Shown here: piece after piece, positions 5,488 to 64,000 of the stretch
How the letters are laid out: each line of letters starts with the position of its first letter
Numbering within the stretch: position 1 is the first letter of the stretch
Source: a virus
Lineage: Duplodnaviria; Heunggongvirae; Uroviricota; Caudoviricetes
IMG/VR virus record: IMGVR_UViG_3300029841_000009
Coordinates: 4,544 to 68,543 of that record
Reading direction: 5' to 3' (one strand)
DNA: 64,000 nt
The notes under the pieces: generated by a model
Told to the model about the DNA's origin: nothing
The model's input: only the letters and a program-made list of their open reading frames with translations
Databases searched by the model: none
Made by a program: the position numbers and the translations under genes

Positions 5488-5488
5488 C

Positions 5489-10572: not shown

Positions 10573-10944
10573 ATGAACGACCAGCAAATCGAAAAAGAAA
10601 TCGTTGAGAAAGGCAAAACGGCACCGCGCGTTACGCCAGACCATATCGAAGGCATTATTGCTCAGGAGGCATATTTCACAGCAGAAGATGGTGCCTTTGG
10701 CAAAGCCATAAAAGAGAAACATACTGGCGGAGAGGTAAACTACCAGCCGCACGAATCACTTTCTCTGCTGACGTTCTGCGTCCTGGTGCTGCGCAACGGC
10801 TTCACCGTCACCGGAGAGAGCGCCTGTGCAAGCCCGGAAAACTTTGATGCGGAAATTGGTCGGAAGATTGCCCGGCAGAATGCTGTAAACAAAATCTGGA
10901 TGCTCGAAGGTTACTTGCTGAAGCAGAAGCTAAGCGAGCAATAA
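10573..10944 (+). CDS. Hypothetical moron protein (opposite orientation to the structural operon)
   Basis: 123-aa ORF with strong SD (AAGGTGAG) 4 nt upstream of the ATG; sits with the tRNA between TerL and portal on the opposite strand. Confidence 0.5.
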   Translation: MNDQQIEKEIVEKGKTAPRVTPDHIEGIIAQEAYFTAEDGAFGKAIKEKHTGGEVNYQPHESLSLLTFCVLVLRNGFTVTGESACASPENFDAEIGRKIARQNAVNKIWMLEGYLLKQKLSEQ

Positions 10945-11034
10945 CGCCGTGACATGTCACAATCAGCCAGCCTATGAGCTGGCTTTGTTTTATCCTCACC
11001 AGAGGATATCAGCAGCATTATCCCATCCAGCGGA

Positions 11035-12510: not shown

Positions 12511-13184
12511 TGATTGCCATCCTGACGTTCTTTCAGTCTCTTCCTGGCTGCCGCTATGCGATCAGCAATTGTCACATTCACATTAACATCCAGGCGTTCT
12601 TTGAATGCGTTGACGTCGACGTGCTTACCAATCAGTTCGAGGTTCTTCACCTTGTCAGGCCATTTAATTTTTTTGAGGATGCCAACCAGCTCTTTCTCGT
12701 CTCCACGGCCTTCGAACATGTCGGCCAGTTCGAAACCTGTCAGGTACTGCCGCCAGACCTTAGGCCATTCCGAGACCGGCTTGATGCTCATATCGTCGTT
12801 GAGAATGTCAATCACGTCCATCTGGTCGATCTCCACCAGGCGCATGAGAACGTAATCAGCACTGACGCGCATTCGTTTGTTGCGCTCCTCCATCAACTCG
12901 GCAATCCGTTTCTGAATGCGTTCATCGCGCATCATGACACTGGCTTTAACTGCCGCTGTATTTGGGGAGAATCCTGCATTAATCGCAGCCTGAGTCTGGT
13001 TTTCAGGCGTTTTGATGTATGACTGGCAATAAGCCTCCTGCATTGCTGTTAGTGGCTTAAATTGCGTTGATTTGCGTTTATAGGTTTTAGGTTCAGCAGG
13101 CATCATAACCACCGTGGTAATAGTTACCGTTGTGGTAATAGTACCATGCAAAATAAAGCCGCCATAGTTGGCGGCAGTATTCAA
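12507..13184 (-). CDS. Terminase small subunit (true start probably near 13106)
   Basis: Helical DNA-binding N-domain pattern (QEAYCQSYIKTPENQTQAAINAGFSPNTAAVKAS) of small terminases; the poly-Thr N-terminal extension in the ORF is probably untranslated. Confidence 0.65.
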   Translation of the reverse strand: MNTAANYGGFILHGTITTTVTITTVVMMPAEPKTYKRKSTQFKPLTAMQEAYCQSYIKTPENQTQAAINAGFSPNTAAVKASVMMRDERIQKRIAELMEERNKRMRVSADYVLMRLVEIDQMDVIDILNDDMSIKPVSEWPKVWRQYLTGFELADMFEGRGDEKELVGILKKIKWPDKVKNLELIGKHVDVNAFKERLDVNVNVTIADRIAAARKRLKERQDGNQ

Positions 13185-13224
13185 AACCCATCAAATTCAT
13201 CATGCATAACCCACTCGTGACATG

Positions 13225-13578
13225 TCACAATATTAATTTCGTTTCATGCCAGCCTTTAGTCACCCAGCATTGCGAGTCACCATTACACGGGCATGAATTC
13301 ACAGGAACTCTCTCGCCGCACTTACCGCAACGTTTTCTGCTGATCGATTTTATACGCCCGTGCACGCGCGCATCATCCTGGCGGATCAGTAACGCTATAT
13401 ACTCACCAAATTCGTAAGGCGCACGCCCGGGGCGACGTGTGGCACAGTTACGCTCCAGCATTTCAATTTCCTGAGCATCAAGCACAATCTCCAGCTTACG
13501 CACACCAGATGCAGCTTGTCTGGCTCTCTGAGCGGCTTTGCGCTCTGCTGCTGCCTTAGCCATTACCATATCCACCAA
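13225..13578 (-). CDS. Hypothetical protein with Cys-rich C-terminus
   Basis: 117-aa ORF upstream of TerS; CGKCG...CPC motif suggests zinc binding. Confidence 0.35.
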   Translation of the reverse strand: MVDMVMAKAAAERKAAQRARQAASGVRKLEIVLDAQEIEMLERNCATRRPGRAPYEFGEYIALLIRQDDARVHGRIKSISRKRCGKCGERVPVNSCPCNGDSQCWVTKGWHETKLIL

Positions 13579-13648
13579 ACTTCACCAGACATGATTCTCG
13601 CAATCACTATCATCACCAAAGTGATAATCACAACTTTAACTGGCGGCA

Positions 13649-14026
13649 TCATTCACCATCCTGCTCCGGCGGTTCTGGCAGCGGCATCCAGTGGGTTACC
13701 TCCTTGAGATACAGGTCTTCGCCACCACCGTCATCCCAAGTGGGCTTGCCATCATTAAACCAGTCGCCATATACGCCGACCTGAGTGTTGGGGATGCTTG
13801 GTGGGTAGTTGTTTTTAAAGTCAGCAGCTAACACATAGCATTGTCGCTCTCCCATTTCTGGCATTCGTTCACTACAGCTTATCCAACTCTCCGGAGTTAC
13901 CGGAGAGTTGCCAGCCTCATACGCCACACGCATCCAGTGCATAAGCGTTTCAGTGCTCACACAGCCGCAATCAACATCAATTTTGCCGTGCTGCTGTTCC
14001 AGCCATTGCTCAAGCGTAGTGCTCAT
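13649..14026 (-). CDS. DUF551-like protein
   Basis: C-terminal THWMPLPEPPE motif typical of lambdoid DUF551 proteins. Confidence 0.55.
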   Translation of the reverse strand: MSTTLEQWLEQQHGKIDVDCGCVSTETLMHWMRVAYEAGNSPVTPESWISCSERMPEMGERQCYVLAADFKNNYPPSIPNTQVGVYGDWFNDGKPTWDDGGGEDLYLKEVTHWMPLPEPPEQDGE

Positions 14027-14256
14027 TTTTCATCCCCCCGATGATGCCATCTGCATCGCATCTCATAACACCCCCACTCAACACGAAAACCACATAGCCT
14101 GTGCAGATCCACCCACTTCTGCGCCATCGCTGGCGACGTGTAAATCACAGTGAATGCGTTATCTTCGTTGTCGATTTGCGTAAACGTCACTTTGTACAAC
14201 AACCCACCGTCGACACATGCTGTGTTCAACGATTTATTGCTAATACCCTCAATCAT
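14023..14256 (-). CDS. Hypothetical protein
   Basis: 77-aa ORF coupled to neighbours. Confidence 0.35.
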   Translation of the reverse strand: MIEGISNKSLNTACVDGGLLYKVTFTQIDNEDNAFTVIYTSPAMAQKWVDLHRLCGFRVEWGCYEMRCRWHHRGDEK

Positions 14257-14900
14257 TCGTACTCACCCCCCGCTGTTTTGAATTTGATCTCCGCTGCCTG
14301 CAATGCGTGTTCGACGTCGAAGCGGTCCAGCCATCCACCAAAGTGGTGCGGCATCATTACCACCCGCTCACCGCTATTTATTGGGTGGCCCATACGGGGT
14401 TCGTAGCCGTCCGGTAACTCGACTTCCCGCGCTTCCAGTTCTGCTATGCGCTTCTCTGATGCTTCAAGTAACGCCTGCTTATCGCGTAGCGCTTCTTCCA
14501 GTTCAGCAACATGGCACTCACTATCAATAAGGTTGTTCTCTGCGGCTTCCAGCTCAACACGCAGCTTCCCTACCGTTAGCGCAATATCCTCGTTCTCTTG
14601 GTCGCGGCGTTTGATGTATTGCTGGTTTCTTTCCCGTTCATCCAACAATGCCAGCACGGTAACTGGATTGGCTGCGGCGATGAATTCAGCATTGGCCTGC
14701 TGTTCCATTTGGAAATCTTCATCGAAACCGCTTTCAGGATGCGCTCCTTCAATTCTGCAAATGGGAAGATATCCAACAACTTCACGATGAATTAGCGCAT
14801 CACCAGCATCAAATCTCTCCTCTCCATATTCTAGCGACCACACACCACACGTTGCTTTTTCTGCCTTAGCACGCAGTGCCTGGTAATTAATTTCGCTCAC
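14253..14900 (-). CDS. Ead/Ea22-like protein
   Basis: N-terminus MSEINYQALRAKAEKA and coiled-coil core LLDERERNQQYIKRRDQENEDIALTVGKLRVELEAAE, as in lambdoid Ead/Ea22 proteins. Confidence 0.55.
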   Translation of the reverse strand: MSEINYQALRAKAEKATCGVWSLEYGEERFDAGDALIHREVVGYLPICRIEGAHPESGFDEDFQMEQQANAEFIAAANPVTVLALLDERERNQQYIKRRDQENEDIALTVGKLRVELEAAENNLIDSECHVAELEEALRDKQALLEASEKRIAELEAREVELPDGYEPRMGHPINSGERVVMMPHHFGGWLDRFDVEHALQAAEIKFKTAGGEYE

Positions 14901-15137
14901 TGGCTGCCTCCTGCTTTTCTGCCTTCAACACCATGCGAGAACCATCATCCAGCTCCCACACTATCTCACCACCTTCAGCCATGACCAGTTGCCACACCAA
15001 TTGAGCAGCCTCATTGGTAACATCACGACCTGGATCATTGCCAACGCGCATACGTCCACCTTCAACATCGCGCATTTTTGCCAGCATGATAGTTTTTGAT
15101 AGCGGTGAAAAACCAAGCTGTAGTCGTGCTGAATTAC

Positions 15138-15764
15138 TCACTGGTTGCCTCCTTTGCGAAGCTGTTCCGCCCATTCTTCAAGGGATTTCTCCGCATATTC
15201 ACCGGACAGGCCATCAATCGGATGCGCTTCATTAACCAACTCTTCTTTCGCTGACAAAATCATGCGTGTAACGTCGAAAACTTCACGCAAAGACTTATTG
15301 ATAAATCCGTGATTGAACGCAGCAGCAAGACGGCTGGCGGTATAGTTAATCCCCTCGTTGCGTGCTTCCGCACGAATTTCAGCCAGAAAAGCATCGGTAG
15401 CTGGAGTTTCGCTGTGGTGTAGGGCATCATTGATAATCATTGCAGCAACACCAGCCTGCCCTGCATCCGTGACCGACACATGCTCAAGAGTTACGGCCAT
15501 TGCGTGTTTCAGTCCGTCGTTCTCCACCACCAGCGCAGCGAGATTAGTCTCATACTCCGCAATTCGGCACATAGCATCGATATTTGTGTCCTCCAGCCGC
15601 TTAATTTCATCCAGTAGCGCCAGCACAACCTGCGGTGTGACCTTCATACGAAACGCGAGCAATTTTTGCGGCGTTGCCACGACTTTTATTGCTTCTGCTG
15701 CCTCACGCAGTGCCTGGTAATTAATTTCGCTCACTGGTTGCCTCCTGAATACGCTTAAACTCAA
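15138..15764 (-). CDS. Ead/Ea22-like protein (paralog)
   Basis: Contains SEINYQALREAAEA; its 3' ~250 bp is near-identical to 63750-64000. Confidence 0.5.
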   Translation of the reverse strand: MSLSVFRRQPVSEINYQALREAAEAIKVVATPQKLLAFRMKVTPQVVLALLDEIKRLEDTNIDAMCRIAEYETNLAALVVENDGLKHAMAVTLEHVSVTDAGQAGVAAMIINDALHHSETPATDAFLAEIRAEARNEGINYTASRLAAAFNHGFINKSLREVFDVTRMILSAKEELVNEAHPIDGLSGEYAEKSLEEWAEQLRKGGNQ

Positions 15765-17089: not shown

Positions 17090-17117
17090 TTATATAAATA
17101 TATAATTCTATATACGG
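17084..17117. repeat. AT-rich iteron (TATATAAAT..TATAATTCTATATA family)
   Basis: Shares the TATAAAT / TATAATT core with seven other copies in the window. Confidence 0.5.
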
Positions 17118-17145: not shown

Positions 17146-18213
17146 TCAGGCTTTCAATAGCGATTCTTTCAGATATCGGGCATCAGCCAGGGCATTTGGA
17201 GTAATCTTGCGAACCCATGCATTACGGGTTGGACTCCACTTAAAGGCGCGTGATTTAAGCAGCGAACGAATGTTTGCCTCTGGTTTGCCAGGGAAATAAA
17301 ACAGGATGCGGTTATCCTCTGGATCTATCTCCATAGAAAAGTCGTCGTATTCTTCGCGCTGTGCTCCTGTTACAGACTTGACCGATTCAAGCTCCTTAAT
17401 ACGGCTCTGTAGTCGTTTGATCTCGGCGTTATTGTTGCTCAGTGCGTATGAAGGGAATCCGATGTGCCCACAGAAATCTCCGGCCAGTAACTCTTTGGCT
17501 TCGCTTTCTGTAAACCTGAGATCGATTAATGCAGAAAGCTGCTGTAATTGGTCTTTTTTGTATTTGCGAATGGCCTTATTTGCGGCCTTCATTTTGACGT
17601 GTGACTTCATGCAGCCTTGCAGCTTACGAAGCAACTTAAATAGCGCATCAGGATCATCAGACGAAATTCCATTACGACCAACACCTGCGGCTTTGCTCTC
17701 GTAGTGTGATGCTTTACTTTCGCATTCAACAAACGCTTTTCTTAATAACGCATCAGCTTTAGACAAACGGCGGCGATGGCCTTTCGCGCTATAATGGTCA
17801 ACTAAAATCGGCTGGCCTAACGGGATCACATCCAACAGGTCATGCGCTCGCTTATGCGCTACCGCACCTTCTTTTCTGGCTTTTTCTGCACGAGCAATAT
17901 ATCGGGCAAGACGCGCGTTCTGGCGTTCCTGATAGGTGTTTACGTAATCATCTCCGCGCTGCTGCTGTTCAAGCCATGCTTTGCGCAGATCTTCTGTTAC
18001 GTCCACCAGCTCCGCAGGGATACAACCAGTTTGGGCTTCATAAGAGTAACCATCCTCATAGATACGCCCATCATCTTCAACAAAGAAAAAGGTTTCGTGC
18101 TCATCGCTTTTGACCATACGACCATTAACATGGCGTAATAGGTAGCCAGTATCAGTGCTTAACAGGCTGTTAGGGTTGTTGATCCAGTCAGAAATAATTA
18201 CTTGTTTATTCAT
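17146..18213 (-). CDS. DUF3560-like protein
   Basis: 355 aa; central IPLGQPILVDHYSAKGHRRRLSKAD segment typical of DUF3560. Confidence 0.5.
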   Translation of the reverse strand: MNKQVIISDWINNPNSLLSTDTGYLLRHVNGRMVKSDEHETFFFVEDDGRIYEDGYSYEAQTGCIPAELVDVTEDLRKAWLEQQQRGDDYVNTYQERQNARLARYIARAEKARKEGAVAHKRAHDLLDVIPLGQPILVDHYSAKGHRRRLSKADALLRKAFVECESKASHYESKAAGVGRNGISSDDPDALFKLLRKLQGCMKSHVKMKAANKAIRKYKKDQLQQLSALIDLRFTESEAKELLAGDFCGHIGFPSYALSNNNAEIKRLQSRIKELESVKSVTGAQREEYDDFSMEIDPEDNRILFYFPGKPEANIRSLLKSRAFKWSPTRNAWVRKITPNALADARYLKESLLKA

Positions 18214-18335
18214 CAGATTTCTCCGGTTTAACCAGGGCGGGTATCGCTCGGTTTCGGGTATAACCTTAGGAAATTTTTTCCCACCTGTAAAGCACTTTTT
18301 ATATAAATCTATAATTATATATTTATAGATTTTCG
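18214..18335 (-). promoter_or_regulatory. Conserved promoter-leader cassette, copy 1
   Basis: AT-rich iteron, then -35 TTTACA, 17 bp, -10 TAAGGT, about 50-nt leader with GGAG SD; near-identical copies at 28215-28333 and 58794-58911. Confidence 0.5.
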
Positions 18336-20907: not shown

Positions 20908-21564
20908 ATGAAAAGCAACGACGAGAACATCAAGAAAGAAATAGGTCTGCGCATTCAGACTCTACGGAAACAATCCGGCATGACTGCCGGAGATCTCCAG
21001 CAAGTCACTGGAATAGGCTTAAGCACCTTGCAGAACTATGAGGCCGGATTAAGACAACCATCTATACCTGCCATCAAGAAAATCGCGCACGCCCTGAAAG
21101 CATCAGCGCCTTATATCGCGTGCTTAACAGATAACCCGTTCCCACCCCAGAATACTAACGCTCCTGTTATTCCTGGGCTTGTAGCTATAAAAAATGACAT
21201 AGCATCGCACGCCGGAGAAAAGCCAGTGCTGGCGATAGAACAGGAGATTCTACGAAGCAAGAACATCAACCCATCGTCTCTGTCAGTTCTCCAGAGCAAC
21301 GATGAGTTAATGTCACCAACAATATCCCCTGGCTCCCAAGTCCTGATTGATACAGACGATACAGAGATTCATGAGGGGATCTATGCCCTTGAAGACAGAA
21401 ATGGCCTGGTTGTTTTGAGGCACTGTAGAGTCATACCGGGTGACAATGCTGTTATGCTGTCAACCGAAAGGGATGCTGAAATGAACACTAAGCATCTGAA
21501 TAACGAGGAATTTAAGCGTTATAAAGTTCTGGGCCGCGTAGTTAGTGTTGTCAACTGGTTATGA
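20908..21564 (+). CDS. CI-like repressor (HTH-XRE N-domain + S24 LexA-like peptidase C-domain)
   Basis: N-terminal HTH (IGLRIQTLRKQSGMTAGDLQQVTGIGLSTLQNYEAG); C-terminal S24-like segment (ELMSPTISPGSQVLIDTDD). Confidence 0.8.
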   Translation: MKSNDENIKKEIGLRIQTLRKQSGMTAGDLQQVTGIGLSTLQNYEAGLRQPSIPAIKKIAHALKASAPYIACLTDNPFPPQNTNAPVIPGLVAIKNDIASHAGEKPVLAIEQEILRSKNINPSSLSVLQSNDELMSPTISPGSQVLIDTDDTEIHEGIYALEDRNGLVVLRHCRVIPGDNAVMLSTERDAEMNTKHLNNEEFKRYKVLGRVVSVVNWL

Positions 21565-22055: not shown

Positions 22056-22160
22056 ATATGATTATAGATTTATATAATTATATAAAACGCTTTTCATCCG
22101 CCAAAAAGTTGGTTATGCTTACCTCGTTCTATAAATATAGATTTATAGAATTATATAACC
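22056..22160. repeat. AT-rich iterons flanking the parA promoter (centromere/operator candidate)
   Basis: TATGATTATAGATTTATATAATTATATAA (22056-22088) and CTATAAATATAGATTTATAGAATTATATAA (22129-22160). Confidence 0.55.
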
Positions 22161-22835: not shown

Positions 22836-22872
22836 TATATAATTATAGTTTTATAGATTTATATAAAAGGGG
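22835..22872. repeat. AT-rich iteron between parA and the RHH gene
   Basis: TAATATATAATTATAGTTTTATAGATTTATATAAAAGG. Confidence 0.5.
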
Positions 22873-22878: not shown

Positions 22879-23127
22879 ATGGCCGCACCATCAAAACCAC
22901 CGAAAAAGAACAGCAAAGGCGTACCGCCATCAATCGAACAACCGCAGGTTTTCGACCCGACTGAAACGCCGACCAGAACCAAATCAGGTGGGGCACAAAT
23001 GGCGTTTAACGTCGACCCTGAATTTAAACGCGAGTACAAAACGTTCGCCAGCTCAATGGATATGTCATTGAAAGAAGTGCTGACAAAATCTTTTGAGTTA
23101 CTCAAGGCTCAATACAACCAGAAGTAA
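22879..23127 (+). CDS. ParG-like ribbon-helix-helix partition / centromere-binding protein
   Basis: 82 aa with disordered basic N-terminus and C-terminal RHH-like MAFNVDPEFKREYKTFASSMDMSLKEVLTKSFELLKAQ; directly downstream of parA. Confidence 0.55.
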   Translation: MAAPSKPPKKNSKGVPPSIEQPQVFDPTETPTRTKSGGAQMAFNVDPEFKREYKTFASSMDMSLKEVLTKSFELLKAQYNQK

Positions 23128-27833: not shown

Positions 27834-28214
27834 TTACTTAACGAGGAATAAAAATGGTTTATCGTTCGGCGGTGTACTCGGGGCTGGCTCGCTTTTGCTC
27901 ATACGATCAGTGTACCAGGCCAGCTCCTTGTCAAAGTAAGCCTGATTAAAATAGGCCATGAATGTGGTTTCAAATCCATAACGACCGCTAATACGCAGCA
28001 TCTGATTGCCGTTCTCTGTTTCCAGATATACCTGGGCACGTTCCTGATTCTCCTTCAGCCAAGTTAAAGCCTCGTCGCACGAGGACACACGATACTCATC
28101 ATCGTAGCCGTCATCGATGCGGCTTGAAGAAGAACGGCAAATCACGCCAACAGAACCAGCCAGGATAGTTTGAATTTTAAGGAAAGCGTTTTTGCGGATT
28201 TTAATCATGCTCAT
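27834..28214 (-). CDS. Hypothetical protein driven by cassette copy 2
   Basis: 126-aa ORF directly downstream of the conserved promoter-leader cassette. Confidence 0.45.
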   Translation of the reverse strand: MSMIKIRKNAFLKIQTILAGSVGVICRSSSSRIDDGYDDEYRVSSCDEALTWLKENQERAQVYLETENGNQMLRISGRYGFETTFMAYFNQAYFDKELAWYTDRMSKSEPAPSTPPNDKPFLFLVK

Positions 28215-28333
28215 CGGGTTATCTCCGGTTTAACCAGGGCGGGTATCGCTCGGTTTCGGGTATAACCATAGGAAATTTTTTCCCACCTGTAAAGCACTTT
28301 TATATAAATCTATAATTATATAATTCTATGAGC
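28215..28333 (-). promoter_or_regulatory. Conserved promoter-leader cassette, copy 2
   Basis: Near-identical to 58794-58911; -35 TTTACA, 17 bp, -10 TATGGT, leader, GGAG SD, ATG. Confidence 0.5.
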
Positions 28334-52487: not shown

Positions 52488-53048
52488 TTATTCTTCCTGC
52501 TTAATAAATCGGGATTCCTGGAGCGCCTGAAGCGCAAAATTAATCTCGTCTTCAATAATGCGTTCGATCTCCCTGGCTGTTTTGCCTTCACAACGGGGAG
52601 CTGCTCTTGGAGCAATACTAAATAAGCGGCTACGCAATTCATTAGCTGCCAGAAATGCATCATCCCTGACCGCATCTTTAGCGATGAGAGAGCCTTCCTT
52701 TTCTTCAAATTCAAGGCGTTTCAGCTTTGCCTGATAAATTTTTTCTGCGGTCTTAGCCTTGTTGAATTGCACCGCAACACCGGAAGTACCACCAGCTAAT
52801 CCGGCATCATCAGCGGGTAACTCTGGTTGTTCCGAAGATATCCCATGCCCTCTTTTTCCATTTTCAGCAGATACCTCACGACCAACCTGTCGGCTCGCTT
52901 CATAAGCCGCACTGGCTTTATCAAAATCCAGCTTGCCGCTTTTCAGCACTGGAATGCGACCGGAACGACAGAGCTTCGTAACCATTGCCGGAGAAATACC
53001 TTTCCGGCGAGCAAACTCTGACTTACTGACGATGGCCATTACTTGCAA
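52488..53048 (-). CDS. Terminase small subunit (HTH-containing; start possibly 53039)
   Basis: N-terminal HTH (SKSEFARRKGISPAMVTKLCRSGRIP); directly upstream of TerL. Confidence 0.55.
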   Translation of the reverse strand: MQVMAIVSKSEFARRKGISPAMVTKLCRSGRIPVLKSGKLDFDKASAAYEASRQVGREVSAENGKRGHGISSEQPELPADDAGLAGGTSGVAVQFNKAKTAEKIYQAKLKRLEFEEKEGSLIAKDAVRDDAFLAANELRSRLFSIAPRAAPRCEGKTAREIERIIEDEINFALQALQESRFIKQEE

Positions 53049-53629
53049 CCATTAGCAAGATACTGAACAAATCCCTCATGCGTTTCATGCGCGTCGTGGT
53101 ACTGACGATAAACATCCAGCAACAATGCAATTTCCATATCCGTCGCGGGAATACGTTCTTTATCAATAGCCAGGTACTTAATTTGAACAACAGGGGAAGA
53201 ATTATCGTCTTCTTCCTGCGGCTGTTCATCGCTTAACATTTCGTCAAGCTCTGCATCATTAAACCCAAGCAGATCAATATCAAAATCATCATCCATTAAC
53301 TCTTTGACTTCTTCGGCCAGAAGCTGCATATCCCAGCCAGCATTTAAGGCCAGCTTGTTATCTGCAATCCTGTAAGCCTTCTTCTGTTTTTCAGAAAGGT
53401 TACTCAACCGAATCGCCGGAACTTTATCCATTTCCAGAATTTCGGCTGCTGCAAGCCGACCATGCCCCGCAATCAGTTCATTCTTTTCATCGATCAGCAC
53501 AGGATTAGTGAAACCGAACTCACGGATACTGTTCACCAACTGTTCAACCTGCTCATCTGAATGAGTCCGTGAATTTTTGGCGTATCTGAGCAGCTTACCG
53601 ACTGGTAAATATTCGATTTTTAGAGCCAT
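53039..53629 (-). CDS. ParB-like nuclease domain protein
   Basis: ParB/Srx N-domain motif LIAGHGRLAAA; paralog of 56296-56919. Confidence 0.65.
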   Translation of the reverse strand: MALKIEYLPVGKLLRYAKNSRTHSDEQVEQLVNSIREFGFTNPVLIDEKNELIAGHGRLAAAEILEMDKVPAIRLSNLSEKQKKAYRIADNKLALNAGWDMQLLAEEVKELMDDDFDIDLLGFNDAELDEMLSDEQPQEEDDNSSPVVQIKYLAIDKERIPATDMEIALLLDVYRQYHDAHETHEGFVQYLANGCK

Positions 53630-54186: not shown

Positions 54187-54906
54187 TTAACGAGAGAAGG
54201 TCTTGGAAAGAATGTCATCAATAGCCTTTGTGACTTCATCAGCAAACGCATCCTCACCAGCACGCAGCGCCACGCCATGCCAATCAAGACGCTGCGAATA
54301 GTTAGGTTGCTGGATAAACGTAAGGATCAACGTAGGACGCCGCCCAACGCGCTGCCAGACGCCTGGTTGAAGCGGGTTACTTGTACCAGGTCGAACAACA
54401 AAAAACTCCGTAGGCTTGCCCTGACGGCGATTTTGATGCGCATCTCGCTGAACTCTTAGGCCAGATAAGACCTGCTGTAATTGCCCCCGCGAAATATTCC
54501 CGTATTTGTCCAGCTTTGCGCCGGGACCAGGAGCAATCTGCCAGCCGTTAGGCAAATATCCACCAGCCCTTAGCGCCCCTTCTGAGCGTTTGTACTGTCG
54601 TTGGCCACCTTCGATTTGCGGAGTCAACGTTACAGGGGCTGGCGTTCCTCCCCATTCACGAGCATACACAATGGCTGTAGGATCACTCTTCTTTGCGGCC
54701 AAAACGTAAGTAGAGTTCTGAATCCACGGCGTGGGCCTGTCAAATACCCGATTAATTTCATTCTTAATCGCAGCCTGAGAAGCCTTTGCCGTTCTGGTTG
54801 CCGCAAGCGCCATTGCGAACGGCAATTCGCGTTCTTCAAGGCGCTGGAGTTGTCGTTGAATATCCTGAGAAGAAAAATCCATCTTTATCTCAATTCTGTC
54901 AGCCAC
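54187..54906 (-). CDS. Hypothetical protein
   Basis: 239-aa ORF between the ParB-methyltransferase gene and the AT-rich region. Confidence 0.4.
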   Translation of the reverse strand: MADRIEIKMDFSSQDIQRQLQRLEERELPFAMALAATRTAKASQAAIKNEINRVFDRPTPWIQNSTYVLAAKKSDPTAIVYAREWGGTPAPVTLTPQIEGGQRQYKRSEGALRAGGYLPNGWQIAPGPGAKLDKYGNISRGQLQQVLSGLRVQRDAHQNRRQGKPTEFFVVRPGTSNPLQPGVWQRVGRRPTLILTFIQQPNYSQRLDWHGVALRAGEDAFADEVTKAIDDILSKTFSR

Positions 54907-54922: not shown

Positions 54923-56302
54923 CTACTTAATCAACGGCCGGAAAGCCGCCAGCACATCATCAGATCGTCCGATTGTTGAACCACCAGGCAACGGCAACTC
55001 AAACTCAAAACGAACAGCTTTCTCCAGACTCGCCCAACTAAGGGAATCATCGTTAATGACGTGCAAATACCAGCTCTTACAGTTGAATATTGACCGCTTA
55101 ATCCTGAAACCATGTACACGACACAACTGCTTCACTTCCTCATCAGAGTGAAACTTCTGGTAAAACCAGTGCCCCTTCCGGTACAACGCGGTAAAACCGT
55201 CATGATCAATAAAATAAAGCCGGCTTTTGGAACTCGCCGCTTGTGTTTGCTTCAGGACTGTTTCCAGTTCTCCACGGCTACGGCCAGAAAAGAATATTGA
55301 CCCACCAGCTTTACACAGGCCTTTCAGAACCGTCAGAACGGACCATTCAGCCTCGACACTATCGACCGAGTTCAAAACGCTATCGCAAATCACGTAGTCG
55401 TAACGCCCTCGCGTTTTTAAGTCGTCCACCAGCGTATCAATCATCCGGTTTGTTGCGGCCCTATCCAGAGTGTTTCCAGCGCCCTTACGGCGGAAAAGCT
55501 CGAGATCATGCAGGTTATATCCCTTTGCCCTGAGCATTCGCGCGTAGTCTCCCTGCCCCGAACCAAAATCAATTCCTCTTGGCGTCTTGGCAATGATCGG
55601 GAGGATCAACGACTCATACAGATTTGATTTCAGGCTGCCACCATTACGCAACCGCATAAGCTGCGCATACGTCTGGATGTATGTTGTTTTCTCCAGATGA
55701 GAATACTCAAATACACCATAAGTTTTATTCAGATAACTTTGGTATTTTTCCTTCTCAACATCAGGGATCACAAACACCGTTAGCGGTGTGCGCGTCATTT
55801 TCGCTGCTAATGCATACTGAGCACAGTGAATAACCTCACCAGACTGAGTAGCAACACAACCACCCCACGGACCATACTTGATAACCAGTTCCGCTATGTT
55901 CTTTCGAACATATGCCATTTTCGCGCGCATATTGCCTGAGATCTGGCTTGCCGATACCTGAACAAAACCATGCTTATCTTCCAGACCGGACACCCTGCAA
56001 CGCTCATCTCCGCTATCAAAATCCGTTCCGTTATGCAGTTGGTTAAACCGTACTTCGTCGTATACCGTCGTTTCACAGGGCAACACATACACCGCAGCAC
56101 GCGTTATTCCCAACTTACGTAGCGCCTTCGTCCTTTGGTGTCCCGCCACCAGCAAATCGCCGCGCACTATCAATGGCTTCACAAGCCCCAGCTCCCTGAC
56201 GCTTTCCGCCAGCCTCGCAAGATCATCCTCACCGATAAAACGCGGGTTATATTCCGCGCCGCGTAGGTGCGTTATGTCGTAATTGAGGTGAAGCATCAGC
56301 AC
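54923..56302 (-). CDS. ParB-like N-domain fused to class I SAM-dependent methyltransferase
   Basis: N-terminal ParB/Srx motif LVAGHQRTKALRKLG; C-terminal motif I IDFGSGQGDYARML and post-I DYVICDSVLN. Confidence 0.65.
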   Translation of the reverse strand: MLMLHLNYDITHLRGAEYNPRFIGEDDLARLAESVRELGLVKPLIVRGDLLVAGHQRTKALRKLGITRAAVYVLPCETTVYDEVRFNQLHNGTDFDSGDERCRVSGLEDKHGFVQVSASQISGNMRAKMAYVRKNIAELVIKYGPWGGCVATQSGEVIHCAQYALAAKMTRTPLTVFVIPDVEKEKYQSYLNKTYGVFEYSHLEKTTYIQTYAQLMRLRNGGSLKSNLYESLILPIIAKTPRGIDFGSGQGDYARMLRAKGYNLHDLELFRRKGAGNTLDRAATNRMIDTLVDDLKTRGRYDYVICDSVLNSVDSVEAEWSVLTVLKGLCKAGGSIFFSGRSRGELETVLKQTQAASSKSRLYFIDHDGFTALYRKGHWFYQKFHSDEEVKQLCRVHGFRIKRSIFNCKSWYLHVINDDSLSWASLEKAVRFEFELPLPGGSTIGRSDDVLAAFRPLIK

Positions 56303-56919
56303 ACCTCCCCAGCCAGCAATGCGGATACAAATCCGATATAGCTGCCATTATCATCAACATAACGAGACACCGCGCAGTCAAAACGATCCGCTTCCTCATC
56401 CGTTGCCGGGATTTTATGACCTCCAAATGACAGGTACTGAACTTTTACGCCTGATTTGGCCTCATCCTTCTCAAATGGGATATCCATACCCTCTGTGTCA
56501 TCGTAGACTGCCGCACTCAATAAGTTATCCAGTTCGCGCTGAGTAAAACCAATTGAGTCCAGAGCAAAATCATCGGCCGCAAGATCTGCAAGCTCCGCGC
56601 TTAACAACTCTTCATCCCAACCAGCATTCAGCGGAATACGGTTGTCGGCCAGACGATATGCCTTCTTCTGATTCTCCGTTAGCCCAGCCAGAACAATGCA
56701 GGGAACATCATCCATCCCCAACTGAGTGGCCGCAGCAATTCGACCATGACCAGCAATTACAACGTTGTTCTCGTCTATCAGGATCGGATTAGTCCATCCG
56801 TACTCCTGTATGCTGGCAACAATCTGATCTACCTGCTCCACGGAGTGTGTGCGAGCGTTCTTTTCATAACCAATCAACACAGAAAGTGGTAAAGAAACCA
56901 CATTAAGATGTTTTGTCAT
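56296..56919 (-). CDS. ParB-like nuclease domain protein (paralog)
   Basis: VIAGHGRIAAA motif; shares architecture and the C-terminal IPATD segment with 53039-53629. Confidence 0.65.
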   Translation of the reverse strand: MTKHLNVVSLPLSVLIGYEKNARTHSVEQVDQIVASIQEYGWTNPILIDENNVVIAGHGRIAAATQLGMDDVPCIVLAGLTENQKKAYRLADNRIPLNAGWDEELLSAELADLAADDFALDSIGFTQRELDNLLSAAVYDDTEGMDIPFEKDEAKSGVKVQYLSFGGHKIPATDEEADRFDCAVSRYVDDNGSYIGFVSALLAGEVC

Positions 56920-57153
56920 GCCGTTTATCCGCTAAAATCCCCTCGCTTGTGCAAGCAAGTGGGCCTCGGTTTGTATCCACGGCACCCTGTGGGTATGAAT
57001 GACTGTCGTCAGGTCGCAACTGACGGCGGTCGCCCACCTTCCAGTAATAAAAAAGCCACCAGCATTAACTCCACAGCGAGCAGGAGTTAATGAGGCAGCT
57101 TTGGTTTGCGCATTATCGCAGCCCCTGATTAGCACAAGAGCTGCTGTAATGCG

Positions 57154-57564
57154 TTACGCAGGGATCAAACAGATGTGGCCGTTATTTACCTCAATACGGG
57201 AATATTCCGGCTTACCATCCACGATTCCGGTAATGACAAGTTCGCCATCAGGCGACCATTCTTCTTTGTCGTCTTCAAGTACCGCGCCTTCTGGCAAATC
57301 AATACAGGCAAAAACAGGGCAGCCAGGATGACGTTTATCCTCCATCGCAATCAGCATCGACTCACCGAACCACTCTGTGGTAGCACGGCCATCAGCCGCC
57401 TGATAGTGAATCAGATACTGGTTTTCGCCATTTGCATACTGAGCACGGGCTTGAACTTCTCCCCACTCTTCACTGATACGCATTGTTACCAGTTGGGATA
57501 ATTCAAACTTAAACGGAACAGACTCTGCACCAATGGCAATCGGTTTATCTTCTTTCTTTTCCAT
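57154..57564 (-). CDS. Hypothetical protein (start at MEKKEDKP)
   Basis: ORF-track start at 57633 lies upstream of a terminator; internal ATG at 57564 has AGGTGA SD. Confidence 0.4.
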   Translation of the reverse strand: MEKKEDKPIAIGAESVPFKFELSQLVTMRISEEWGEVQARAQYANGENQYLIHYQAADGRATTEWFGESMLIAMEDKRHPGCPVFACIDLPEGAVLEDDKEEWSPDGELVITGIVDGKPEYSRIEVNNGHICLIPA

Positions 57565-57581
57565 AACATCACCTGAAAATA

Positions 57582-57606
57582 AAAAGCCCCGCGACACCGC
57601 GAGGCT
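57582..57606 (-). terminator. Rho-independent terminator after the small membrane-peptide pair
   Basis: GCCTCGCG-gtgt-CGCGGGGC hairpin with T5 on the minus strand. Confidence 0.5.
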
Positions 57607-57607
57607 G

Positions 57608-57766
57608 TAAGAGTTACTTTCGATATAAATCAAGGCGCATTTGCTCCCGCTTAAGCCGAAAAGCCCTCTGCGCCACTAAGATGCGCCACAGGACACCAGC
57701 GATAACCACCAGCGAGATACAAAAACACACGGCCACAACCATCAGAAAAATGCCAACACCATTCAT
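57608..57766 (-). CDS. Small hydrophobic peptide (52 aa), toxin-like
   Basis: Manual translation: MNGVGIFLMVVAVCFCISLVVIAGVLWRILVAQRAFRLKREQMRLDLYRK; ATG overlaps the upstream stop (ATGA); below the ORF-track size cutoff. Confidence 0.4.
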
Positions 57767-57975
57767 GAAACTATCCATTCTTCAATGAATATCTCCAGTA
57801 ATGTCAAGAGATACGCCGTCCCCAGCGCGGTTCCTACCGATATAGCTAAGACAAACCTCAAAGATAACGAGGTGTCTTTCGCTTTTCTCCAGACGTAAGC
57901 GCCAGCTAGAAATACCAACAAATCTCTTATTGGAAGCGGAAACCAGAACAAATCACTCGGCATAAGCACGATCAT
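57763..57975 (-). CDS. Small membrane protein (70 aa, two hydrophobic segments)
   Basis: LLVFLAGAYVW and FVLAISVGTALGTAYLLTLL segments; coupled to the 52-aa peptide. Confidence 0.4.
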   Translation of the reverse strand: MIVLMPSDLFWFPLPIRDLLVFLAGAYVWRKAKDTSLSLRFVLAISVGTALGTAYLLTLLEIFIEEWIVS

Positions 57976-58252
57976 CTTCCGCTGCTGATTTACATGCCGC
58001 AGTTACTGATATATTGATAACCGGTGCGCTAATCGTGATGGACGACGCTGTCGGTTGACGCGATATAACTGAACGATGGCTATCAATGAAGTCCACAATC
58101 TCATTCAGGCACTCTTTAGCTGCCTCATCGTGACTTTTTCCGTATGCTTCATGGAGGACTTTCATCCTCATCATTGCTCCGTCACATATAGTCGAAAGCG
58201 CGTAAAGCACATCACTAACCGCCATTTCTTTTTTGGTGCTTGTCGAAGGCAT
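57953..58252 (-). CDS. Hypothetical protein
   Basis: 99-aa ORF. Confidence 0.35.
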   Translation of the reverse strand: MPSTSTKKEMAVSDVLYALSTICDGAMMRMKVLHEAYGKSHDEAAKECLNEIVDFIDSHRSVISRQPTASSITISAPVINISVTAACKSAAEDDRAYAE

Positions 58253-58326
58253 CCCATGTTCTCCTTTGTCTGGATGTAAAAAAGCCCCGGCAATTGCCGA
58301 GGCTCGTTGTTCGTTATCGTTACGGT

Positions 58327-58527
58327 TTAATGCTCGCGTCGTCCGGCGACAACTTCGGATTTGTATTTCAGGTCGCCCAGCAAGAATTGCAGTTTAAGCA
58401 TCTTTGCCGCCGTGTAGTTCCCTGATTCCACAACCTCTTTCATGAGGTCATAAACGGCCGCTACATCATCAGCCAGGAACTCTTTGCGTTGCTGCTCAGT
58501 CGCACGTTTGAAGGAAATACGCATCAC
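58327..58527 (-). CDS. Hypothetical protein
   Basis: 66-aa ORF coupled to the 58524 gene. Confidence 0.35.
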   Translation of the reverse strand: MMRISFKRATEQQRKEFLADDVAAVYDLMKEVVESGNYTAAKMLKLQFLLGDLKYKSEVVAGRREH

Positions 58528-58793
58528 TCATCATCTCCTGCCGCACATACAACCTCACAAAAAAAATCAGCAGAATGTTTCTCCTTGAACGAATGACGCT
58601 CAAAACCGCACTCAATATCAGGCGCAAAAACATCCACCACATACGGTCTTTCAGAATGTTTGTTTTCCCAACGATAAACCGTAGTGACGTTGAAATGTTT
58701 TAACGCTTCACGGAACTCAACGCTGCCAGTCAGGTTTTTTGAGGTCAGGTATTGCAGGAGGTTTTTTACTACTTCACGGTCTTGTACTTTCAT
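58524..58793 (-). CDS. Hypothetical protein driven by cassette copy 3
   Basis: 89-aa ORF immediately downstream of the conserved promoter-leader cassette. Confidence 0.45.
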   Translation of the reverse strand: MKVQDREVVKNLLQYLTSKNLTGSVEFREALKHFNVTTVYRWENKHSERPYVVDVFAPDIECGFERHSFKEKHSADFFCEVVCAAGDDE

Positions 58794-58911
58794 CGGGTTA
58801 TCTCCGGTTTAACCAGGGCGGGTATCGCTCGGTTTCGGGTATAACCATAGGAAATTTTTTCCCACCTGTAAAGCACTTTTATATAAATCTATAATTATAT
58901 AATTCTATACC
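58794..58911 (-). promoter_or_regulatory. Conserved promoter-leader cassette, copy 3
   Basis: -35 TTTACA (58872-58867), 17 bp, -10 TATGGT (58849-58844), leader with GGAG SD; AT-rich iteron 58877-58911. Confidence 0.5.
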
Positions 58912-59492
58912 ACTTGCCAGAGAGCATCATGCAACTGGATACTTCCATTGCACTGGTTGCCCCAGCCATGCCAACCATCAGGTAAATCACCGCGAGCAAA
59001 CAGCTCAATACGAGGAACATCACCTAACAGCCTTACCAGCTTGTCACGAACCACATCAGGCTTCCGAGAATGCTCCAGACGAGGCGATGTAAACGACTGA
59101 ATGATCCCCGCATCAAGGCGGGTCGGCAATTTGCCTTTTACCGCAAACAAGCAATCTTCACTGTTTGCACGAGTCATATGCCCCATCCCCATCACCAGCT
59201 TATCTGGTTGTCGGCTACCACATTTGTTCCATGTGAAGCCCTTCATGGTCATAAGCCTGAATCCCCATGCTTTCACCACCAGCAACGCTTCTTCTGGCTG
59301 AGTCGGAACCCACCACATGGCCAACAAACACGATTCAGGATTAGCAAGCTGCCAGACAGGAATACGAGCAATATCCTCAGCTTTCATCGTTGGATACTTA
59401 AAACCAGCTCCACGATTCCCATCCTTACACTTATCTTTGTATTCCCAGGGGGGATCTGCATAAATCAGATTAAACAATGCAATTGCCTCCAT
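58905..59492 (-). CDS. MT-A70 family DNA adenine methyltransferase
   Basis: N-terminal LIYADPPWEY (DPPW catalytic motif); 195 aa. Confidence 0.75.
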   Translation of the reverse strand: MEAIALFNLIYADPPWEYKDKCKDGNRGAGFKYPTMKAEDIARIPVWQLANPESCLLAMWWVPTQPEEALLVVKAWGFRLMTMKGFTWNKCGSRQPDKLVMGMGHMTRANSEDCLFAVKGKLPTRLDAGIIQSFTSPRLEHSRKPDVVRDKLVRLLGDVPRIELFARGDLPDGWHGWGNQCNGSIQLHDALWQVV

Positions 59493-59800
59493 GTTAGTTG
59501 TGCCTCCGGCGCTTATCTCCGGCAGTCATAACGCTGGCCAGCTCTACAGCAGACGCAACGAAAAGGGCACTAACCAGACTGATTAATGCCCTTGCCTGTT
59601 GTGTGCCGGATATCGCCCGACAACGCTGTTTTGGTAACACGGCTACAGTTCCGTGCCGCTCCAGCTTTTACCCCTTTGCGGATAACAGGCCCTGCCTGTA
59701 ACTTAGCCCCACGTTCGCCCGAAATGCGCACCAGGCACGCATAAAGATGAGCACGAAGGAAGTAACTCCACCGCGCTTATCTTTATGTGTGAGAGTGAAT

Positions 59801-59876
59801 TGGTGGCCCCTACCGGATTTGAACCGATGACCGTGCGATTATGAGTCGCCTGCTCTAACCACTGAGCTAAGGGGCC
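59801..59876 (-). tRNA. tRNA with CAU anticodon (tRNA-Ile2-like, or Met)
   Basis: Minus-strand read GGCCCCTTAGCTCAGTGGTTAGAGCAGGCGACTCATAATCGC...GGTTCAAATCC...GGGGCCACCA; close to my recollection of E. coli ileX in acceptor, D and anticodon arms. Confidence 0.8.
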
Positions 59877-59883
59877 ATATTTG

Positions 59884-59972
59884 ATCTGTTTGTCTGGTGT
59901 GGCGCCGCGCACGAAAATCCCAGCCAATAAATTCAGGATTTTTGGGCGCGGCGGCATATCAGACAAACATGG
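59884..59972. repeat. Large imperfect palindrome upstream of the tRNA
   Basis: Arms CTGTTTGTCTGG..GGCGCCGCGC and GCGCGGCGGC..CAGACAAACATGG around an inner inverted repeat GAAAATCC...GGATTTT. Confidence 0.45.
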
Positions 59973-60012
59973 TTGATGCGTGCGCCCATGAGAAAAGCGC
60001 ATAGAATGTTGT

Positions 60013-60047
60013 AACTATATATTTATATAATTATAGAAATATATATT
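60013..60047. repeat. AT-rich iteron downstream of the spanin genes
   Basis: AACTATATATTTATATAATTATAGAAATATATATT, same family as the parA-flanking iterons. Confidence 0.45.
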
Positions 60048-60255
60048 ACTTGGGGCAGTTGATTTCCCATGCCCTGTTATGAGCCAGAATATCTTTCTTT
60101 GTCTGGCGGTCCATAACATCGATATCGTGATCAGTCAGGTAGATGGGCTTTACCCAATCACAGGCGGTATCAACCACCACCGGGACGCTTCCACGACTCC
60201 CGCAGCTCGCGATCAACATCGTCATCAGCCATATGGTTAACACTCTGCTGTACAT
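60046..60255 (-). CDS. o-spanin (outer-membrane lipoprotein, Rz1-like), overlapped arrangement
   Basis: 69 aa with signal peptide and lipobox IASC; start lies inside the i-spanin gene in another frame. Confidence 0.55.
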   Translation of the reverse strand: MYSRVLTIWLMTMLIASCGSRGSVPVVVDTACDWVKPIYLTDHDIDVMDRQTKKDILAHNRAWEINCPK

Positions 60256-62848: not shown

Positions 62849-63531
62849 TCCCCCTTCACGCCAATGCCAGCGGCGCGCTCGGCTTTACTTTGTTCCCAAA
62901 ACCACTTGTGAAGCTCCATAAGCTTTTCGTCAATCGGTGCATATTTGCGATTAAAGTAGGCCTGAGCATCTTTCTCAGATTCGTCCGGCAATTCGCCTGG
63001 GCCAAACAGTGTGTTATAAATCCATGCCAGTCCGCTCTTAGCGTCGCCAGTTGCCTGCCATTCGATAATCGCAGCCTGCATGACCAGAATGTTTTTCCCG
63101 ATTAACAGGTCCAGTTCTTTGTACCGGTTGCGGATGTATGCATTCTCGCTTTGTAATTTTGCGTTGCGCTTCTCTGCGGCTTCCAGCTCAACACGCAGCT
63201 TCCCTACCGTTAGCGCAATTTCCTCGTTCTCCTGGTCGCGTGATTTGATGTATTGCTGGTTTCTTTCCCGTTCATCCAGCAGCGCCTGCACTACTTCAGG
63301 GTTGAAAGCTGCGATATAACGAGCGTTGTTCTCTGCGTTTTTCTGTTCGTCGAATCCTGGCCAGTCGACAATATCTCCGTGATGATTATCACCTGGTGTG
63401 TGTACGGCGTACGTGCCGTATTTGCCCGGCGAAATAAATGCGACCCATTCACCCTGTGTTGCCTTTTCTGCCGCATCACGCAGTGCCTGATAGTCAATTT
63501 TGCTCATTGTGCCTCCTCGATTTCGTCCCAT
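62845..63531 (-). CDS. Ead/Ea22-like protein (probable start at MSKIDYQALRDAAEKA, 63507)
   Basis: Shares MS.I.YQALR.AAEKA and the coiled-coil core LLDERERNQQYIKSRDQENEEIALTVGKLRVELEAAE with 14253-14900. Confidence 0.5.
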   Translation of the reverse strand: MGRNRGGTMSKIDYQALRDAAEKATQGEWVAFISPGKYGTYAVHTPGDNHHGDIVDWPGFDEQKNAENNARYIAAFNPEVVQALLDERERNQQYIKSRDQENEEIALTVGKLRVELEAAEKRNAKLQSENAYIRNRYKELDLLIGKNILVMQAAIIEWQATGDAKSGLAWIYNTLFGPGELPDESEKDAQAYFNRKYAPIDEKLMELHKWFWEQSKAERAAGIGVKGE

Positions 63532-63737
63532 TCCACCCAGGCATTCTCTCCATCAGCATCGATTTCACCTTTGTGACCGCATTTGGAACAGACAGCCTCA
63601 TCACCCGCCCACAAAGAATCTTTGGTTACCGACCATCCTGTTACCTTGGCTTTGCCGTGCTGGCACTTAGGGCAATCATCAAGCCATTCGACTTCGACTG
63701 TTGAAGGACCAAATCCATGTTCAGTTCGGATGCTCAT
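63504..63737 (-). CDS. Small zinc-ribbon-like protein (start at MSIRTEHGF, 63737)
   Basis: Two CxxC pairs (CPKCQ, CSKCG); ATG overlaps the stop of the upstream Ead-like gene. Confidence 0.4.
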   Translation of the reverse strand: MSIRTEHGFGPSTVEVEWLDDCPKCQHGKAKVTGWSVTKDSLWAGDEAVCSKCGHKGEIDADGENAWVEWDEIEEAQ

Positions 63738-64000
63738 AACTGAACTCCTTTGCGAATCTGTTCCGCCCATTCTTCAAGGGATTTCTCCGCATATTCACCG
63801 GACAGGCCATCAATCGGGTACGGTTCATTAGCCAACTCTTCTTTCGCTGACAGAATCATGCGCGTAACGTCGAAAACTTCACGCAAAGACTTATTGATAA
63901 ATCCGTGATTGAACGCAGCAGCAAGACGGCTGGCGGTATAGTTAATCCCCTCGTTGCGTGCTTCCGCACGAATTTCAGCCAGAAAAGCATCGGTAGCTGG
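63734..64000 (-). CDS. Ead/Ea22-like protein, C-terminal part (gene runs off the right edge)
   Basis: Near-identical at DNA level to the 3' end of 15138-15764; stop TGA at 63734-63736. Confidence 0.5.
   Translation of the reverse strand, partial: PATDAFLAEIRAEARNEGINYTASRLAAAFNHGFINKSLREVFDVTRMILSAKEELANEPYPIDGLSGEYAEKSLEEWAEQIRKGVQL

Follow-up and report, generated by a model that had tools for sequence, protein, structure and literature searches.

The stretch of DNA analyzed here, hereafter the window, comprises 64,000 nucleotides (nt) of a virus record assigned to Caudoviricetes (IMGVR_UViG_3300029841_000009, positions 4,544 to 68,543), and our subject is a block of six small minus-strand genes, g1 to g6, that lies within it. 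From ≈15.4 to 64 kb, the window corresponds at 99.5% identity to a family of circular, non-mobilizable Escherichia coli plasmids of ≈47 to 49 kb, of which pMB9698_3 (NZ_CP103471.1; locus L001) is an example. Because these plasmids encode plasmid functions (RepA, ParA, a RelE/ParE toxin–antitoxin pair, and a CI-like repressor) together with a full myovirus set (terminase, portal, capsid, sheath, tube, and baseplate), we regard the family as phage-plasmids. Three Yersinia pestis phages, vB_YpM_39, vB_YpM_41, and vB_YpM_44, belong to the same family, and the E. coli reference strain ATCC 25922 carries a plasmid of this family. Six consecutive minus-strand open reading frames (ORFs) fill the interval 58793..57154 exactly, in agreement with a first-pass annotation that had placed six small unknown genes between a methylase and a ParB cluster. 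The sizes it gave stand at 89, 66, 99, 70, and about 136 residues, whereas the 52 residues assigned to g5 fit neither of the two starts available to that gene (50 or 54 residues).

58793..58524, minus strand: g1, 89 residues; from the ORF list and sequence; good Shine–Dalgarno site; phrog_6143
58524 (ATG) or 58527 (GTG)..58327, minus strand: g2, 65 or 66 residues; good Shine–Dalgarno site; phrog_6621
58252..57953, minus strand: g3, 99 residues; good Shine–Dalgarno site; phrog_8319
57975..57763, minus strand: g4, 70 residues; ORF, overlaps the end of g3
57778 or 57766..57614, minus strand: g5, 54 or 50 residues; ORF, overlaps g4 by 16 nt
57564..57154, minus strand: g6, 136 residues; good Shine–Dalgarno site; phrog_1935

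All six ORFs are intact in nine related E. coli and Yersinia elements, loci L002 to L009 have the genes in unchanged order, and the whole block is found in 50 of 87 matching plasmids at a coverage of at least 80%. A diverged plasmid from Salmonella Weltevreden (NZ_LN890526.1; locus L024, hereafter the Salmonella plasmid) harbors the six genes in unchanged order, with amino acid identities to the window of 44% (g1), 34% (g2), 31% (g3), 42 to 47% (g4), 38% (g5), and 48% (g6), as compared with 75% for the flanking MT-A70 methylase and 81% for the flanking ParB/Srx protein. Between the same two sequences, the proportion of nonsynonymous differences (pN, 0.33–0.47) lies below a saturated proportion of synonymous differences (pS, 0.68–1.0) in each of the six genes; pN is 0.12 to 0.19 in the flanking enzymes, and the block genes thus evolve two to three times faster than their neighbors. 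Since the ORFs are intact and ordered in relatives as distant as the Salmonella plasmid and pN is below pS in each, we conclude from these comparisons that all six are real genes. This includes g4, and often g2, which PGAP leaves out of its annotation yet which are conserved like the remaining block genes; the g5 start that reads MD.. is also present in the Salmonella homolog. Variation within the block among relatives is confined to the g6 slot and the middle of g3.

It is very improbable that some of these ORFs, g4 and g5 especially, are chance frames in a long intergenic or leader region: the gaps in PGAP annotation, the weak Shine–Dalgarno sites of g4 and g5, their want of a PHROG family, and an excess of nonsynonymous over synonymous variant sites in g5 among close relatives (10 versus 3) would fit such frames, but both ORFs are intact in 9 of 9 close relatives, both persist in Salmonella (42% and 38% identity) with length, overlap geometry, and transmembrane (TM) pattern unchanged, and pN is below pS in g4 (0.33 versus 0.94) and in g5 (0.40 versus 0.68).

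Transcription signals and a dispersed AT-rich motif

The block is a co-directional unit that runs from a promoter cassette through g1–g2, a terminator-like hairpin (T1), g3–g4–g5, a second such hairpin (T2), and g6 to a third hairpin of the same kind.

58790..58908, minus strand: 119-nt promoter and 5′ untranslated region cassette, copy 3; spans the methylase stop to the g1 start codon
58305..58282, minus strand: T1, terminator-like hairpin of 10 pairs (7 G–C) plus a T run, 22 nt after g2
57606..57585, minus strand: T2, terminator-like hairpin of 9 pairs (7 G–C) plus a T run, 7 nt after g5
57092..57049, minus strand: T3-like hairpin of 10 bp (CATTAACTCC / GGAGTTAATG) with T6 8 nt later; read from the sequence, downstream of g6

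The cassette consists of an AT-rich motif (58880–58909), a −35 hexamer TTTACA (58872..58867), and a −10 hexamer TATGGT (58849..58844) separated from it by a 17-nt spacer, followed by a leader of ≈45 nt, the Shine–Dalgarno sequence GGAGA, and the ATG of g1; the promoter is sigma-70-like. The Salmonella plasmid conserves the same promoter hexamers and has three terminators at matching positions, each of different sequence: a different hairpin and then T6 at the position of T1, a counterpart of T2, and a terminator at the place of the T3-like element that was flagged by the terminator scan, which in the window left the T3-like element unflagged. Because these terminators differ in sequence and still occupy all three places, the layout is under constraint. 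The gaps from T1 to g3 (30 nt) and from T2 to g6 (20 nt) leave no room for promoters, from which we infer that g3 through g6 are transcribed only by read-through. The g2 start overlaps the g1 stop (TGATG), which suggests that g1 and g2 are translationally coupled, and the same is suggested for g4 and g5, each of which likewise starts before the gene ahead of it has ended or just where it ends.

The cassette is one of three near-identical copies in the window (18209–18327, 28211–28329, and 58790–58908). The first precedes a DUF3560/primase-like gene of the early region (18213..17146), and the second precedes a gene of 126 residues (28214..27834) that adjoins the RelE/ParE toxin–antitoxin pair. 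Cassettes are found at three syntenic places in the Salmonella plasmid (38175–38280, 30365–30468, and 45568–45677) and are ≈90% identical to those of the window, whereas the flanking coding DNA is only ≈70 to 76% identical. Copies are nearly identical inside one genome and differ consistently at ≈10 positions between E. coli and Salmonella, and this pattern therefore indicates concerted evolution of the cassettes; co-evolution with a trans-acting factor could also underlie it.

For the AT-rich motif (consensus TATAATTATAGATTTATATA), which immediately precedes the −35 hexamer, the window contains 14 matches versus 0 expected by chance. These fall at 17091–17110, 18300–18329, 22057–22076, 22130–22157, 22838–22865, 28301–28320, 58880–58909, and 60010–60045, all of them intergenic: each of the three cassettes has the motif, as do two sites upstream of parA, the gap between parA and a gene of 82 residues, and the stretches that follow the DUF3560 gene and the lysis cassette. 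A scan of the window detected no match between the CI-like repressor (20908..21564) and the early operon. Since the motif flanks parA and is not found in that interval, it points to a partition-linked regulator rather than a phage repressor as its candidate binding partner. The motif may be a centromere or operator site of a partition system that acts as a global regulator. The 82-residue gene that follows parA (22879..23127) has the look, by eye, of a ribbon-helix-helix protein, without a Pfam match.

The six proteins and the fold of g6

The first-pass annotation had reported no recognizable domains. Searches of Pfam, NCBIfam, PADLOC, and PDB sequences bear this out, as they returned nothing usable for the six proteins and their Salmonella counterparts; PHROGs do not, since g1, g2, g3, and g6 belong to them (four of six genes, all in families of unknown function), and neither does structure, since g6 has a recognizable fold. 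No family among the defense-system hidden Markov models of PADLOC-DB 2.0 matched g1 to g6 at E ≤ 1. Searches of PDB sequences (phmmer and hmmsearch; g1, g2, g3, and g6, plus family profiles of g1, g3, and g6) gave chance-level matches only (E > 0.04) against a set that takes in many solved anti-defense proteins (Ocr, ArdA, Acr, Tad, Acb, and others). A literature search on the PHROG numbers of g1, g2, g3, and g6 found nothing. Matches of all six proteins to known structural or regulatory families with unrelated roles, which the first-pass annotation had named as evidence against its own functional suggestion, were not found.

The g1 protein is acidic (isoelectric point, pI, 5.5) and soluble and corresponds to the first 88 positions of the phrog_6143 profile (218 positions), full-length members of which are Erwinia phage proteins of 218 to 227 residues, e.g., PEp14 gp63 (227 residues). 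Very few relatives of g1 are found outside the element family; the Salmonella homolog has 97 residues. A helix-turn-helix reading of g1, based on the stretch TTVYRW, was dropped because neither the Salmonella nor the Erwinia homologs conserve it. The g2 protein is basic (pI 9.0), is 98 to 100% conserved in close relatives, and has a Salmonella homolog of 64 residues. The g3 protein is soluble and modular, with an N-terminal region of ≈60 residues that is common to all alleles and a middle domain that is shared by a 151-residue allele (phrog_14707) and the 246-residue Salmonella allele and that the 99-residue g3 of the window lacks. The N terminus of the Salmonella g3 gave a weak match to DUF1804 (E 0.0034, below the curated cutoff).

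Two of the proteins are predicted to reside in the membrane. The g4 protein is small and hydrophobic, with one clear TM segment (≈residues 37–64) and, at the N terminus, a shorter hydrophobic stretch; all 59 plasmids in which it occurs belong to this element family, to which g3 is likewise restricted. The g5 protein has a single TM helix followed by a basic C-terminal tail (pI 10.3); it is variable among close relatives (84–100% identity), and its Salmonella homolog of 50 residues has the same architecture. Despite the TM segments of both and the basic tail of g5, library searches matched neither g4 nor g5 to a holin family, and the lysis cassette of the element is already complete, with two annotated holins, an endolysin, and spanins.

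The g6 protein is acidic (pI 4.5) and, over its first ≈97 residues, shares 80% identity with L33 of the Stx2e phage phiP27 (PHROG 1935). A family profile retrieved 598 relatives in a search of 1.84 billion cluster representatives (clusters at 50% identity). Most are stand-alone proteins of 57 to 100 residues, and a few are fused to Lcl_C or to tail-fiber-assembly fragments or are tandemly duplicated. Fusions of distant g6-core proteins to Lcl_C (DUF1566-type) or repeated domains (P0166, P0188, P0224, P0159, and P0164) could help assign a partner or function. None of 81 family members examined (0/81) matches any Pfam family, and PF08755 gave no match at E ≤ 1, g6 included. An AlphaFold2 model calculated on a deep alignment is confident for roughly residues 10 to 80 (predicted local distance difference test score, pLDDT, of 88–98 as 10-residue block means); a shallow enterobacterial alignment, which gave a pLDDT of 46, was discarded. 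The model is a five-stranded SH3-like barrel (≈residues 15–90) that can be superposed on HspQ, followed by an optional C-terminal extension of 35 to 40 residues (≈residues 98–136) with low model confidence. In hhalign comparisons, the g6 family matched E. coli HspQ alone with a probability of 60.6% and an 18-sequence HspQ alignment, itself of low diversity, with a probability of 87.3% over 75 columns; an E..L......HP motif is common to the g6 family and the HspQ alignment. On the model and these profiles, g6 and HspQ have the same fold and are probably distantly related, short of established family membership. HspQ is an activator and substrate of Lon and can become an inhibitor of ClpS (PMC6719616), and the YccV-like domain of human PDIP38 modulates CLPXP (PMC7647994). 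Sources name the YccV family "hemimethylated DNA binding protein."

Relatives of g6 recur in comparable surroundings. In many E. coli lambdoid prophages, one follows the lysis genes ≈600 nt before Nu1/DUF1441-TerL, and in phiP27, L33 lies after lysis and before HNH-cos-TerS. In Enterobacter P2-like prophages, a relative overlaps the stop of a LysB-like gene and precedes gpR; ESSI2 and another P2/HP1-like phage (L030) have one between TerS and a head-completion gene, and two metagenomic phages (L031 and L034) have one directly before TerS or TerL. These neighborhoods therefore tie the family to late lysis and packaging regions. The place after LysB in P2-like phages had also suggested an o-spanin, which was rejected because g6 has no lipobox or signal sequence.

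Among close relatives, the g6 slot is occupied by g6, by a C-terminally truncated form, by a tail-fiber-assembly fusion, or by an unrelated DUF2513/phrog_585 gene. As phage-forming relatives replace or truncate g6 (vB_YpM_39 carries DUF2513), it is dispensable for making virions. The DUF2513/phrog_585 gene (≈135 residues) lies at 513–920 in L004 and L005 and at 1813–2220 in L002, and the slot is a clean allelic replacement site between T2 and the ParB/Srx gene. In vB_YpM_41 (L003, 1755–2468), an in-frame fusion joins g6 to ≈100 residues from the N terminus of a tail-fiber assembly protein (Caudo_TAP); it replaces the end of g5 and T2 and recurs in several clusters (P0003, P0035, and P0090).

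Genomic setting and timing of expression

The block genes and the flanks discussed here are all on the minus strand. In coding-strand order, the block is preceded by holin, holin, GH108 endolysin, spanins, tRNA(CAU), and MT-A70 and is followed by ParB/Srx, ParB-methyltransferase, a 239-residue protein, a second ParB/Srx, TerS, TerL, portal, and the head and tail genes; the CI-like repressor and early operon are ≈37 kb away. By gene order, then, the block is located in the late region, at the lysis-to-packaging junction. It is non-structural, lies outside replication, and is found within a cluster of DNA-modification genes. The first-pass annotation had taken these genes to be expressed early; their place after the lysis cassette and before terminase, portal, and head, and the late contexts of g6 relatives, lend this no support, with the caveat that the g1–g2 cassette also precedes the primase-like gene of the early region, so that g1 and g2 may be made early or late.

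59492..58905, minus strand: MT-A70 family DNA methyltransferase, 195 residues; upstream flank; Pfam E 3.4e-23
56919..56296, minus strand: ParB/Srx N-terminal-domain protein, 207 residues; downstream flank; library matches
56302..54923, minus strand: ParB_N plus SAM-methyltransferase; directly after the ParB/Srx gene

Three genes with a ParB/Srx N-terminal domain lie between the block and the terminase (56919..56296, 56302..54923, and 53629..53039), one of them fused to the SAM methyltransferase and one directly before TerS. A related-locus search with the ParB/Srx protein gave only unrelated distant loci. The 239-residue gene (54906..54187) belongs to a PHROG labeled "minor tail protein," though it is far from the tail genes. 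An Rfam scan of 56000–60200 found the tRNA and nothing else. This tRNA (59801–59876, minus strand; anticodon CAU) is called tRNA-Met by ARAGORN and tRNA-Ile by PGAP in pMB9698_3 and resembles ileZ of phiP27, with which the element also has in common the gene order methylase, tRNA, ..., lysis, L33.

Positions 1 to 15411 of the window match a chromosomal lambdoid prophage (97%), and positions 15400 to 64000 match the phage-plasmid; direct repeats at 14536–15404 and 63170–64000 (84–97% identity) are 48.6 kb apart, about one plasmid length. This split and the repeats therefore suggest that the phage-plasmid is not free here and is cointegrated into a related prophage through homologous recombination. 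Assignment of the element to the "p0111" or pSLy3 phage-plasmid groups was rejected, as the literature shows these to be P1-like and SSU5-like, respectively.

Explanations weighed and comparison with known systems

We favor the reading that the block is a conserved accessory module of the ≈48 kb myovirus-type phage-plasmids of Escherichia and Salmonella, placed at their lysis–packaging junction, and we put the probability of this explanation as a whole at roughly 45%. Under this reading, g1 and g2 would be made whenever the cassette promoter fires, and that promoter probably shares its regulation with the two other genes behind a cassette, via the AT-rich motif that also flanks parA. The g3–g6 genes would be made by read-through only, either weakly or once late transcription turns terminator-resistant. 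The g1 and g2 products would be a translationally coupled acidic/basic pair of small soluble proteins, and soluble, modular g3 would be coupled to the small inner-membrane proteins g4 and g5. This group would most probably work at the cell envelope, either in excluding superinfecting phages or in setting the time of lysis. The g6 protein would most likely act late as a small binding module; its partner would be a host AAA+ protease system, by analogy with HspQ, or else DNA, in line with the YccV name.

Several points weigh against this picture. For g1, g2, and g3, no link to a function emerged; the promoter and the terminators were recognized solely by their fit to consensus sequences, and the region has no more predicted promoters than shuffled sequence would give; no antiterminator was identified in the element; g5 appears almost neutral among close relatives, given the variant sites counted above; and one g6 relative, Bcep176 gp32, is found among small genes far from packaging genes, the only such informative context.

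Phage orphan methylases are typical anti-restriction functions that protect phage DNA from restriction, and the position of the block between the MT-A70 methylase and the ParB_N-methyltransferase makes it reasonable to ask whether some or all of g1–g6 are an anti-defense island that inhibits restriction–modification, CBASS, or retrons alongside these orphan methyltransferases. The proteins are small, partly acidic (g1 and g6), and fast-evolving, with pN two to three times that of the flanking enzymes, and relatives carry a DUF2513 gene or other alleles in the g6 slot, a turnover typical of arms-race loci. We nevertheless consider an anti-defense role, which these observations neither support nor refute, the less likely reading. 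No match was found in PADLOC, in Pfam, or in PDB sequences, many solved anti-defense proteins among them; the block is outside the early region, and a protein produced solely late would have to be packaged to protect incoming DNA; and the association of g6 relatives with lysis and packaging genes extends to many types of phage in which no methylase adjoins them. As for the host-takeover role that the first-pass annotation had also suggested, the HspQ-like fold predicted for g6 is the only functional lead, and it fits such a role loosely.

The block could instead serve the prophage state, as a fitness or exclusion module of the "moron" type that is expressed from its own promoter in the plasmid, with g4 and g5 blocking superinfecting phages at the membrane by analogy with Imm and Sp of T4. 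A sigma-70-like promoter and terminators between functional modules, the AT-rich motif that suggests co-regulation with plasmid-state functions, the two small membrane proteins, and the restriction of g3 and g4 to the element family are all in keeping with this possibility. However, g4 and g5 lie behind T1 and have no promoter of their own, so that little of them would be made in the prophage state; the block recurs throughout the family, whereas classic morons are sporadic; and no sequence similarity to any known exclusion protein was detected. We regard this, too, as a minority prospect.

A role for g6, and perhaps for g1–g3, in packaging or DNA modification, in which these proteins act on phage DNA together with the methylases, ParB/Srx, and the terminase, seems distinctly doubtful. 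A YccV-like g6 might, for example, bind hemimethylated or unmethylated DNA and mark or prepare concatemers for methylation and packaging, and this would suit both the "hemimethylated DNA" name given to the family of its closest structural relative and the placement of g6-core genes before TerS/TerL, between TerS and head completion, or between lysis and cos/TerS. On the other hand, the acidity of g6 is unusual for a DNA binder, its replacement or truncation in phage-forming relatives makes it dispensable for virion production, and in one P2-like group the relative lies after LysB and before tail completion, not by the terminase.

We give still less credence to a bolder extension of the structural lead, in which the g6 family, a previously uncurated domain without a Pfam model that comprises ≈600 clusters at 50% identity, would be a phage branch of HspQ/YccV that readjusts AAA+ proteolysis of the host (Lon, ClpS/ClpAP) at a late stage of infection, with the block as part of a partition-linked regulon. 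If true, the g6 family would be a widespread and unrecognized class of host-takeover factor.

Small accessory genes without a known function are found in every temperate phage, and in this respect there is nothing unusual about the block itself: its genes are already public as hypothetical proteins, in PHROGs and in dozens of E. coli plasmids. What has changed is that the block is now defined, as six real genes (two of them often missed by annotation) in a fixed promoter–terminator layout with variable slots, and is a clean target for deletion and expression tests. Two points are worth following, the g6–HspQ link and the wiring of the cassettes and the AT-rich motif. The first opens onto a large family of phage proteins whose fold is confidently predicted and whose link to HspQ can be tested; if phages use g6-like proteins to steer host proteolysis or to read the DNA methylation state at packaging, this would constitute a new and widespread phage–host interface.

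Among known systems, the block as a whole is most readily compared with lambdoid morons such as lambda bor and lom, in which accessory genes of small size likewise come with a sigma-70-like promoter and intrinsic terminators of their own at a module junction of the late region. It differs from these in being family-wide, the diverged Salmonella member included, rather than sporadic, and in using one promoter, itself one of three cassette copies, for three terminator-bounded segments. The g1–g2 layout, a coupled pair of small genes served by a promoter and terminator of its own, resembles that of toxin–antitoxin pairs, whereas g1 is the N-terminal part of a family of larger phage proteins (218–227 residues). 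Because g1 is a domain of such a protein and Pfam, NCBIfam, and PADLOC searches were empty, a type II toxin–antitoxin pair was rejected.

Imm and Sp of T4 and holin/antiholin pairs are small membrane proteins with which phages exert exclusion or control lysis. Like them, g4 and g5 are a very small inner-membrane pair encoded near lysis genes, and g5 has one TM helix and a charged cytoplasmic tail; unlike them, g4 and g5 share no sequence similarity with any of these and belong to an element whose lysis cassette is already complete. The g6 gene resembles L33 of phiP27 in its position after lysis genes and before packaging genes, but L33 lacks the C-terminal extension and is followed by an HNH endonuclease, cos, and TerS rather than by ParB genes. 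In fold, g6 resembles the HspQ/YccV-like domain (PF08755; PDB 5ycq), an SH3-like β-barrel, from which it differs in low identity (17–20%) and the want of a Pfam match; the g6 family is phage-encoded and lacks the long insertion of HspQ between strands 2 and 3, and the g6 of the window has the C-terminal extension.

Finally, global regulons built on dispersed sites are known from RK2 (KorB operators), pSM19035 (omega), N15 (dispersed centromeres), and P1 (C1 operators). The AT-rich motif resembles these dispersed-site partition and repressor regulons in that one short motif recurs at several intergenic sites, the flanks of parA included, and stands directly upstream of three otherwise identical promoters; it differs from RK2 KorB and the others in that the 82-residue gene next to parA has no Pfam match.

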